The notes under the pieces are model-generated. The model was given only the letters and a program-made list of their open reading frames with translations. It was not told the origin of the DNA and ran no database searches. 36,125 nt of DNA from Myxococcota bacterium. Lineage in GTDB: Bacteria; Myxococcota_A; UBA796. The DNA is taken from positions 1 to 36,125 of the forward strand of contig JBCBLB010000010.1 in the NCBI GenBank assembly GCA_038520555.1, written 5' to 3'. The translations under genes and the position numbers were made by a program. Positions 18,021-19,082 of the stretch are shown in pieces (position 1 is the first letter of the stretch; the number at the start of each line of letters is the position of its first letter).

Positions 18021-19082
18021 ATGCTCACCCAGGTCCGATTCCAGAACATCCGCGCCCTCGCCAATTTCCGCCTCAACCTACAGCCGCTCACCGTCCTGGT
18101 CGGGCCAAACGCATGTGGCAAGAGCACGGTTCTCCATGAAATTGAACGCCTGTGCCGATTCACTCACCGGAATCCACACCCGACTTTCGTGGGTGGTCCG
18201 AACCGAATCGACATACCCCCGATCACATCCGGGCGGATCGGTGCTCAATCCTGGGAAGGGAAGATGTCTTCACAGTCCGTATCAATTTCGATTCCCCCTA
18301 CCCCTCCTGATCAAATGAAGATTGATATTCAACTTGACAATAATGGTAAAAAAGAAGAAATTCTATTTCAAGATGGTTCTTATAATGGAAATGAAGAGAG
18401 TGTTCTCAGAGTATTATATGATTTCTCCTGGCGGGTACAGCAGTTGATATTGGAGCGACGCATGATCCTGAGACCATCACCTGTCAACGCATCGATGACG
18501 CGTTTAGAATCTTCAGGGTTTGGGTTGGCGACGTTGCTCCTTCACCTTGCCTCCAATCACACAGAGGCCTACCTGAAACTCCAGAAAGATCTGGCTGCTG
18601 TTGTCCCCGGCTTCCAGCGATTGTATGTCAAACAGATCGGTAAAAGTGGTCACACATACTATGGACTTGAACTTGTATTTAATGGCGCTGGACAGATCTC
18701 TGCAGAGTATGCGAGCGAGGGAACACTGTTCGCCCTCGGACTCCTCGCCGCGCTTCATTCGCCAGAGATGCCCACGATCGTCCTCCTCGACGACCTGGAT
18801 CGCGGACTCCATCTCTCCGCACAGTACGAACTGGTCGAAGCGATCCGGCGCGTGCAAGCACAACGGCCTGAGCTTCAAGTGATCGCGACGAGCCATTCTC
18901 CAGTTTTGGTGGACAGCTTCCGCGCGGAAGAAGTGCGGGTGATGAGCCTTGATGAGAATGGACATGCGCAGGCCCGCCCGCTGACCGAGATGCCTGACTT
19001 CCCGAAGTGGTCGCGGGCCCTTCAGCCCGGAGAGATGTGGGCGAACTTCGGCGAGAAGTGGGTCACCGAAGATGCCCGATGA
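18021..19082 (+). CDS. ABC-type ATPase of the AAA_21/AAA_15 (OLD/AriA/PtuA-like) family
   Basis: N-terminus MLTQVRFQNIRALANFRLNL...; Walker A GPNACGKST; signature-like SEGTLFALGLLAAL; Walker B/D-loop IVLLDDLDRGLH; H-loop motif ATSHSP. GGAG 5 nt upstream of the ATG. Contains a strongly AT-rich internal segment (~18300-18430). Confidence 0.85.
   Translation: MLTQVRFQNIRALANFRLNLQPLTVLVGPNACGKSTVLHEIERLCRFTHRNPHPTFVGGPNRIDIPPITSGRIGAQSWEGKMSSQSVSISIPPTPPDQMKIDIQLDNNGKKEEILFQDGSYNGNEESVLRVLYDFSWRVQQLILERRMILRPSPVNASMTRLESSGFGLATLLLHLASNHTEAYLKLQKDLAAVVPGFQRLYVKQIGKSGHTYYGLELVFNGAGQISAEYASEGTLFALGLLAALHSPEMPTIVLLDDLDRGLHLSAQYELVEAIRRVQAQRPELQVIATSHSPVLVDSFRAEEVRVMSLDENGHAQARPLTEMPDFPKWSRALQPGEMWANFGEKWVTEDAR

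Follow-up and report, generated by a model that had tools for sequence, protein, structure and literature searches.

The ATPase gene described here raises the question of how a short and extremely AT-rich segment came to lie inside an intact gene of a GC-rich contig and what this segment contributes to the encoded protein. The analysed stretch of DNA, referred to as the window, is an entire 36,125-bp contig of a Myxococcota metagenome-assembled genome (MAG) with an overall GC content of 62.1%. The gene is located on the forward strand at 18021-19082 and codes for an intact protein of 353 residues (MEL6341838.1), annotated by NCBI as 'AAA family ATPase'. The protein is an ABC-type ATPase of the AAA_15/AAA_21 group, with Pfam matches past the cut-offs for both AAA_21 (1.2e-23) and AAA_15 (2.1e-15). 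Among the PADLOC models HEC-01A (PDLC04183) fits best with an E-value of 8.8e-32 and a best stretch covering residues 149-340, while PDC-M07A, AriA, MADS3, AbiLi and PtuA match more weakly. An AlphaFold model based on 22 sequences reached a pLDDT of 89.4 and a pTM of 0.89. Its top match in a Foldseek search of the PDB is PtuA (1.6e-15); PtuA proteins from Septu and retron systems and the head of RecN are the nearest solved structures, each with a TM-score of ca. 0.5. All motifs of ABC ATPases are present in canonical order on an ABC fold, and all are encoded on the forward strand. The Walker A motif GPNACGKS (18102-18125, residues 28-35) lies near the N-terminus, and just past it the GC content at the third codon position (GC3) begins to fall. 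A conserved WRxQ motif (WRVQ; 18429-18440, residues 137-140) occupies the place expected for the Q-loop in an ABC fold and on this ground probably corresponds to the Q-loop strand. The signature-like ASEGT (18711-18725, residues 231-235), the Walker B motif IVLLDD (18777-18794, residues 253-258), the D-loop (18795-18812) and the H-loop TSHS (18888-18899, residues 290-293) together form the conserved catalytic core at 18711-18899, in which GC3 is host-like.

The ATPase gene overlaps by 11 nt with a partner gene (19072-19878, forward strand) encoding a 268-residue protein with a Rossmann-like α/β fold, which is annotated as 'hypothetical protein' (MEL6341839.1). A homologue of this partner follows the ATPase in 139 of the 159 family loci with a downstream ORF. 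The window partner itself matches no Pfam, NCBIfam or PADLOC model. The residues D117, D119, E153, W155 and K198 do not vary among 30 aligned family members, whereas the invariance of the N-terminal GED(x)A motif (E13-D14) is limited to the four closest partners. Weak matches in the same 30 proteins were obtained to HEC-01B (six members, best 3.9e-5), RloB (three, best 4e-4), AbiLii (two), DUF4276 (one) and Toprim_3 (one), and the window partner appears to be a distant, Toprim-like relative of HEC-01B, RloB and AbiLii. Taken together with the models matched by the ATPase, these weak similarities point to a divergent module of an ABC ATPase and a Toprim-like protein of the HEC-01/AbiL/PARIS kind. 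The window pair would constitute a new member of that kind, apparently with an unusually strong compositional contrast within a single gene.

The sequence-only reading had pointed to a patch of about 30% GC within the ATPase gene, and this observation is borne out: the GC content at 18300-18430 is 0.313 compared to a mean of 0.621 for the 36-kb contig, and the lowest value of any 100-bp stretch of the whole contig (0.26) is reached from position 18325 onwards. A two-state segmentation by maximum likelihood places the limits of the AT-rich island on the forward strand at 18310-18424 (115 bp), with a GC content of 0.26 versus 0.57 in the remainder of the gene; the latter falls short of the more than 60% that had been attributed to the surrounding gene. 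With a log-likelihood ratio of 20.5 for this segmentation, compared to 12.6 for the best of 100 codon shuffles, the island is real and far outside chance. Codons 97-135 of the ORF 18021-19082, which is uninterrupted, encode the peptide DQMKIDIQLDNNGKKEEILFQDGSYNGNEESVLRVLYDF. For these codons GC1, GC2 and GC3 amount to 0.51, 0.15 and 0.15, respectively, and the fraction of FYMINK residues in the island is 0.38 versus 0.19 elsewhere in the protein. Over 25 codons GC3 drops to a minimum of 0.04, whereas windows of the same size in the 19 other ORFs of the contig (9395 windows) show a mean of 0.80 (sd 0.12) and a minimum of 0.36, which makes the island the outlier that it had been supposed to be. 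In the other genes, the relative usage of the codons preferred in the island, namely ATT, AAT, CAA, TTA, CTA, GTA and AGA, is 0.03-0.18, and the earlier claim of a foreign codon usage is confirmed insofar as the composition is foreign to the contig at each of the three codon positions. Non-coding stretches of the contig, with GC contents of 0.51-0.66, likewise lie well above the island. Its right-hand edge is sharp and marked by the WRxQ motif. A second, milder trough is found in the same gene at codons 201-222 (18621-18686, forward strand) with a GC3 of 0.32. Along the gene GC3 amounts to 0.88 in codons 1-25 (the N arm), 0.47 in codons 26-222 (the central cassette, which includes both the island and the second trough) and 0.69 in codons 223-353 (the C arm). 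Elsewhere in the contig, the only other trough of comparable depth lies at ca. 9430-9500 (GC 0.20 over 60 bp) and contains TATAAT-like strings. It is situated outside the ORFs taken as genes, flanked by 7471-9198 and 10258-12345 (both on the reverse strand), and is probably a promoter region.

Within the protein, the island falls into a hypervariable region between helix H1 and the strand S2/Q-loop (18156-18425 on the forward strand, residues 46-135), which we term Insert 1 following the usage of Krishnan et al. and Payne et al. (bioRxiv 10.1101/2024.01.29.577857). In that work, the N-terminal hairpin is described as being enlarged by Insert 1 to the β-sheet characteristic of ABC ATPases, and Insert 1 as differing greatly from one system to another (bioRxiv 10.1101/2024.01.29.577857). 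In the AlphaFold model it comprises the strands 76-81, 85-91, 100-107 and 110-117 and a helix formed by residues 125-133; the last two strands and the helix, predicted with pLDDT values of 73-89, are encoded by the island, which thereby specifies the distal hairpin and the helix of Insert 1. The second trough coincides in the model with a variable β-hairpin of Insert 2 (strands 198-208 and 211-220). The island is thus predicted to encode a folded part of the protein with regular secondary structure integrated into the ABC fold. An alignment with 21 homologues revealed that the region between the Walker A helix and WRxQ is of similar length in every relative, although its sequence cannot be aligned even between relatives that are 56-57% identical overall. 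The earlier idea of a variable inserted loop, or of any insertion at this position, can therefore be ruled out, as all homologues carry a segment of similar length and the region is folded in the model.

Other origins were also considered and rejected. For an insertion sequence or a MITE, neither a length excess compared to the homologues nor flanking repeats were found, and for a target of a diversity-generating retroelement neither a second copy of the island in the window nor a reverse transcriptase among the Pfam matches. A structured RNA or a tRNA was dismissed in view of the lack of any Rfam match at gathering thresholds and of any tRNA, and an internal promoter because the consensus was matched weakly at just two sites (9 of 12 positions), of which one is antisense at 18371-18343, against a shuffle expectation of 0.7. 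Foreign AT-rich reads brought in by a chimeric assembly or by a sequencing error have to be kept in mind for a metagenome-assembled contig, particularly since the second assembly containing this locus, the Logan contig L001 (SRR22824295; 100% identical over 16914-24306), may be derived from the same reads and is not fully independent. However, the reading frame is kept, both sides of the island align in register to the homologues, the length and the predicted fold of the segment are as expected at this position, and the same phenomenon is observed in two relatives from other samples. We therefore attribute next to no weight to an artefact.

For comparison, the DNA of the closest relatives and of 160 more distant ones was recovered. 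Of the six closest relatives, two that originate from independent samples (L165 and L170) carry larger AT-rich blocks, 270-330 bp long, at this site. The block of L165 extends over ca. 330 bp with GC contents of 0.13-0.43 per 30-bp bin and GC3 values down to 0.00, and that of L170 over ca. 270 bp with GC contents of 0.20-0.40 between flanks with a GC3 of 0.95-1.0; over both relatives the GC3 of the flanks ranges from 0.8 to 1.0. Both blocks span Insert 1 and end sharply at the conserved strand. In the remaining four close relatives, Insert 1 displays a GC3 of about 0.8-0.9. Extreme values below all else in the own contig are hence encountered in three of the seven genes of the close clade. In the family as a whole, 144 of the 149 non-identical genes have a lower GC3 in Insert 1 than in the conserved core. 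The mean deficit is 0.14; in 34 genes it is larger than 0.2, and in nine larger than 0.3. The deficit is continuously distributed and is also seen in low-GC hosts. Whether the homologues share the composition of the segment consequently has a mixed answer: the closest homologue does not (GC3 0.88), whereas two of the six closest relatives share the island and a weaker deficit is near-universal. The partner genes of the same operons contain neither comparable islands nor a comparable dip in their variable parts. On the Logan contigs L001 and L165, the automatic gene calls truncated the ATPase at the island, leaving products of 34 and 195 residues (P0002; 1430-2169, corresponding to 18343-19082 of the window) on L001 and of 207 residues (P0012; 590-1213) on L165, while NCBI kept all 353 residues. 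AT-rich islands in GC-rich genes can in this way hide family members from protein databases, and the family might be under-annotated.

A further trait of the family became apparent from pairs of closely related genes. Among pairs whose C-terminal domains are 90-97% identical, the identity of Insert 1 ranges from 20% to 95%. One pair originates from an orthologous chromosomal locus of Corallococcus sp. CA053C (L058, ATPase at 4001-5119) and C. sicarius (L063, ATPase at 4001-5182). The upstream 1.5 kb are 97.7% identical at the nucleotide level and codons 1-30 of the ATPase are 100% identical; residues 41-132 then show an identity of 35-45%, which corresponds to chance level, before the identity rises to ca. 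0.9 again near the C-terminus. The two partner proteins are only 77% identical. The pair represents a natural allele swap, clean and with its breakpoint at Walker A. In a second pair (L071/L073), dS is low in the two arms (N arm 0.06, C arm 0.26) compared to Insert 1 (1.39) and the well-aligned middle (1.41), and the same pattern was found for L039/L042 and L016/L064. The genes of these related genomes are thus recombination mosaics with near-identical N and C arms and unrelated centres. The breakpoints in the family are located at residues ca. 31-41 on the left and ca. 215-270 on the right and coincide with the block of depressed GC3 in the window gene (codons 26-222). No pair combining a divergent core with a similar Insert 1 was found among the family genes. 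Two copies of the ATPase-partner pair are present in each of two MAGs (L065 and L071 in CAYUHJ01, L066 and L084 in JAYWHB01), and such double copies could serve as substrates for cassette exchange within a genome.

On this basis we favour a scenario in which a variable module with an evolutionary past in a lower-GC gene pool was exchanged and left the island as its compositional trace, and we assign to this scenario a probability of roughly one half. The module would be a two-gene pair of an ABC ATPase and a Toprim-like protein with a hypervariable central cassette constituted by Insert 1 and, more weakly, by Insert 2, and the island would be the most AT-rich portion of this cassette. Homology arms would be provided by the conserved N-terminus up to and including Walker A and by the catalytic core at the C-terminal end, and crossovers in these arms would replace the centre by alleles of a different history. 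The distal half of Insert 1 would have kept a codon and amino-acid composition acquired under strong AT pressure in the lower-GC pool, while the arms and the partner gene appear host-like. In agreement with this scenario, GC1, GC2 and GC3 of the island and its content of FYMINK residues match those of genuine coding sequence of a genome with ca. 30% GC. Moreover, Insert 1 has a GC3 of about 0.2-0.3 in L016, L064 and L013, which suggests that such cassettes circulate in the family. The GC3 deficit is a regional property and is independent of column conservation within each region, which argues for the history of a block rather than for site-wise codon selection; selection for codon accuracy of the Akashi type was accordingly discarded as the main cause. 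For the window gene itself, we infer that the centre was obtained by exchange and that the source was low in GC. As its best relative shares 56-57% identity, this mosaic origin is deduced solely from composition.

A low-GC donor of the island is plausible. A word-index search with a 70-residue segment against 5.8 billion proteins returned nothing, and when 1.84 billion proteins were searched exhaustively with phmmer, only five long proteins (884-2122 residues) were matched, in multiple stretches and most likely for compositional reasons. A protein-only search of the JGI metagenomes yielded no close relatives. Relatives of the family were likewise absent from the viral contig and plasmid collections searched, so that no AT-rich mobile pool was identified. 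In the literature, nothing directly relevant was found on AT-rich hypervariable regions in defence ATPases or flagellin. The sequence-only reading had considered a recent horizontal acquisition of the module from a low-GC donor or a recently recombined variable loop; the exchange of a variable module stands for the family, but with the donor searches empty, both the low-GC donor and the recent date of the event are unproven. A further point against an exchange is that alleles of 30% and 62% GC would share little DNA identity even in the conserved arms.

The near-universal GC3 deficit of Insert 1, which includes low-GC hosts, suggests a systematic AT-ward force acting on this region across the family beyond the contribution of chance donors, and it keeps two other explanations alive. 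One of them is a decay in place. Insert 1 would be nearly free of constraint and too divergent for homologous recombination, and would drift towards an AT-rich mutational equilibrium after escaping from the codon selection or the GC-biased gene conversion which otherwise keep GC3 high; a foreign donor is then unnecessary. Insert 1 indeed seems to evolve near-neutrally, with dN values of 0.8-1.3 comparable to dS, versus 0.1-0.3 for dN in the core, although dN/dS is uninformative within the own clade of the window gene, where dS is saturated. The near-universality and continuity of the deficit also fit a gradual process, as do the smoothed GC3 of the window gene, which tracks smoothed conservation (rho 0.64) down to the second trough in another variable hairpin, and the generally higher AT content of accessory compared to core DNA (PMC5303225). 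On the other hand, the island with its GC content of 0.26-0.31 and GC3 of 0.04-0.15 lies far below the non-coding stretches (0.51-0.66) and all other 25-codon windows (at least 0.36), for which neutral decay in place is not easily sufficient. The independence of GC3 from column conservation within a region and the sharp right-hand edge also speak against it. Furthermore, four of the six closest relatives are just as variable in Insert 1 and yet retain a GC3 of ca. 0.8-0.9, and no similar drop is seen where the partner gene is variable. Altogether we consider a decay in place unlikely.

The other explanation postulates that AT-richness or rare codons are selected as such, either as a translation throttle for a potentially toxic ATPase-nuclease pair or for silencing by AT-binding nucleoid proteins. 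It would account for a deficit that is bound to one region and recurs family-wide whatever the protein sequence, for the extreme position of the three genes of the close clade within their own contigs, and for the use of codons that are among the rarest in the contig; the truncation of automatic gene calls on two independent contigs illustrates the strength of the island. However, codon positions 1 and 2 and the amino acids are also shifted, which codon choice alone does not require, and the feature is wholly absent in four of the six closest relatives. Promoter-like matches are weak only, and neither an Rfam match nor repeats were detected. We therefore regard such a selection as quite improbable. 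Its boldest version would be a family-wide selected AT tract in a sensor ATPase which throttles or silences the toxic ATPase-Toprim pair and ties its expression to the state of the cell, e.g. to the tRNA supply or to the displacement of a silencer during infection. If true, it would explain the deficit in 144 of 149 genes whatever the GC content of the host; we treat it as a long shot.

In analogy to other mosaic specificity modules, Insert 1 might decide what the system recognises or which inhibitor is evaded. Being variable and exchanged, it is the obvious candidate for such a role and offers a concrete target for domain swaps. The family of ATPase and Toprim-like pairs is widespread and uncharacterised, and the island marks the module that is varied and exchanged in it. 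Of wider interest is why a variable module is more AT-rich than the core of its own gene, low-GC hosts included.

The neighbourhood of the pair consists of a protein similar to Major Vault Protein, a giant protein with MopE repeats and metG. Neither of the two upstream ORFs (14150-14950 and 15025-17868) has a PADLOC match, and the remaining neighbours have no defence domain among their Pfam matches. As HEC-01 conferred no phage protection in published assays (bioRxiv 10.1101/2024.01.29.577857) and the neighbours are not defence genes, the attribution of the window pair to defence is drawn from homology. Several of the surrounding genes are of interest in their own right. The protein encoded directly upstream of the ATPase (15025-17868, reverse strand; 947 residues) contains Major Vault Protein domains (MVP_shoulder 1.7e-19, Vault_4 5e-5, Vault_3 5.5e-5) and may be a homologue of the vault shell protein in bacteria. 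The giant protein of 2374 residues (19944-27068, reverse strand) carries about 20 putative metal-binding repeats of the MopE type (PF11617, 4e-181) in addition to lamin-tail and legume-lectin-like domains. A 722-residue protein (1162-3330, reverse strand) contains an eCIS_core domain (3.3e-11), the family being named after extracellular contractile injection systems, and a 165-residue protein (35563-36060, reverse strand) a LURP-one-related (LOR) domain (7.9e-18), a family mainly familiar from plants.

Among the known systems, HEC-01 (Hma-embedded candidate 01), described by Payne et al. (bioRxiv 10.1101/2024.01.29.577857) and represented in PADLOC as an ABC ATPase and a TOPRIM protein, resembles the window module in its two-gene design of an ABC ATPase and a small Toprim-like partner. 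The match of the ATPase to HEC-01A, however, is mainly confined to residues 149-340, the partner matches no HEC-01B model, and no compositional island has been described for HEC-01. Unlike HEC-01 in its Hma context, the window module does not lie beside other defence genes. A possible relationship to AbiL is suggested by the match of the ATPase to AbiLi (2.1e-19); the similarities to AbiL and RloA/RloB are nevertheless weak and mostly indirect, and the window partner itself matches neither AbiLii nor RloB. PARIS, the OLD-family nucleases and Gabija share the coupling of an ABC ATPase to a Toprim-type effector. In the case of PARIS, the AriA model matches the C-terminal 80 residues of the window ATPase (1.4e-23), but AriA models match the termini only and neither the window partner nor its family shows an AriB/DUF4435 match. 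The window ATPase is also much smaller and has no long helical insertion. Septu provides the best structural match with PtuA, yet its HNH partner PtuB is absent. In terms of gene architecture, the closest parallels are found in the target-recognition domains of HsdS in Type I restriction, the central domain of flagellin and the tips of phage tail fibres, where conserved ends recombine and the centres are unrelated between close strains. These centres are often of atypical composition and have demonstrated functions in specificity. Compared to such mosaics, the window gene stands out by an unusually strong GC3 contrast, with values of 0.04-0.15 and of 0.7-0.9 combined in one gene.
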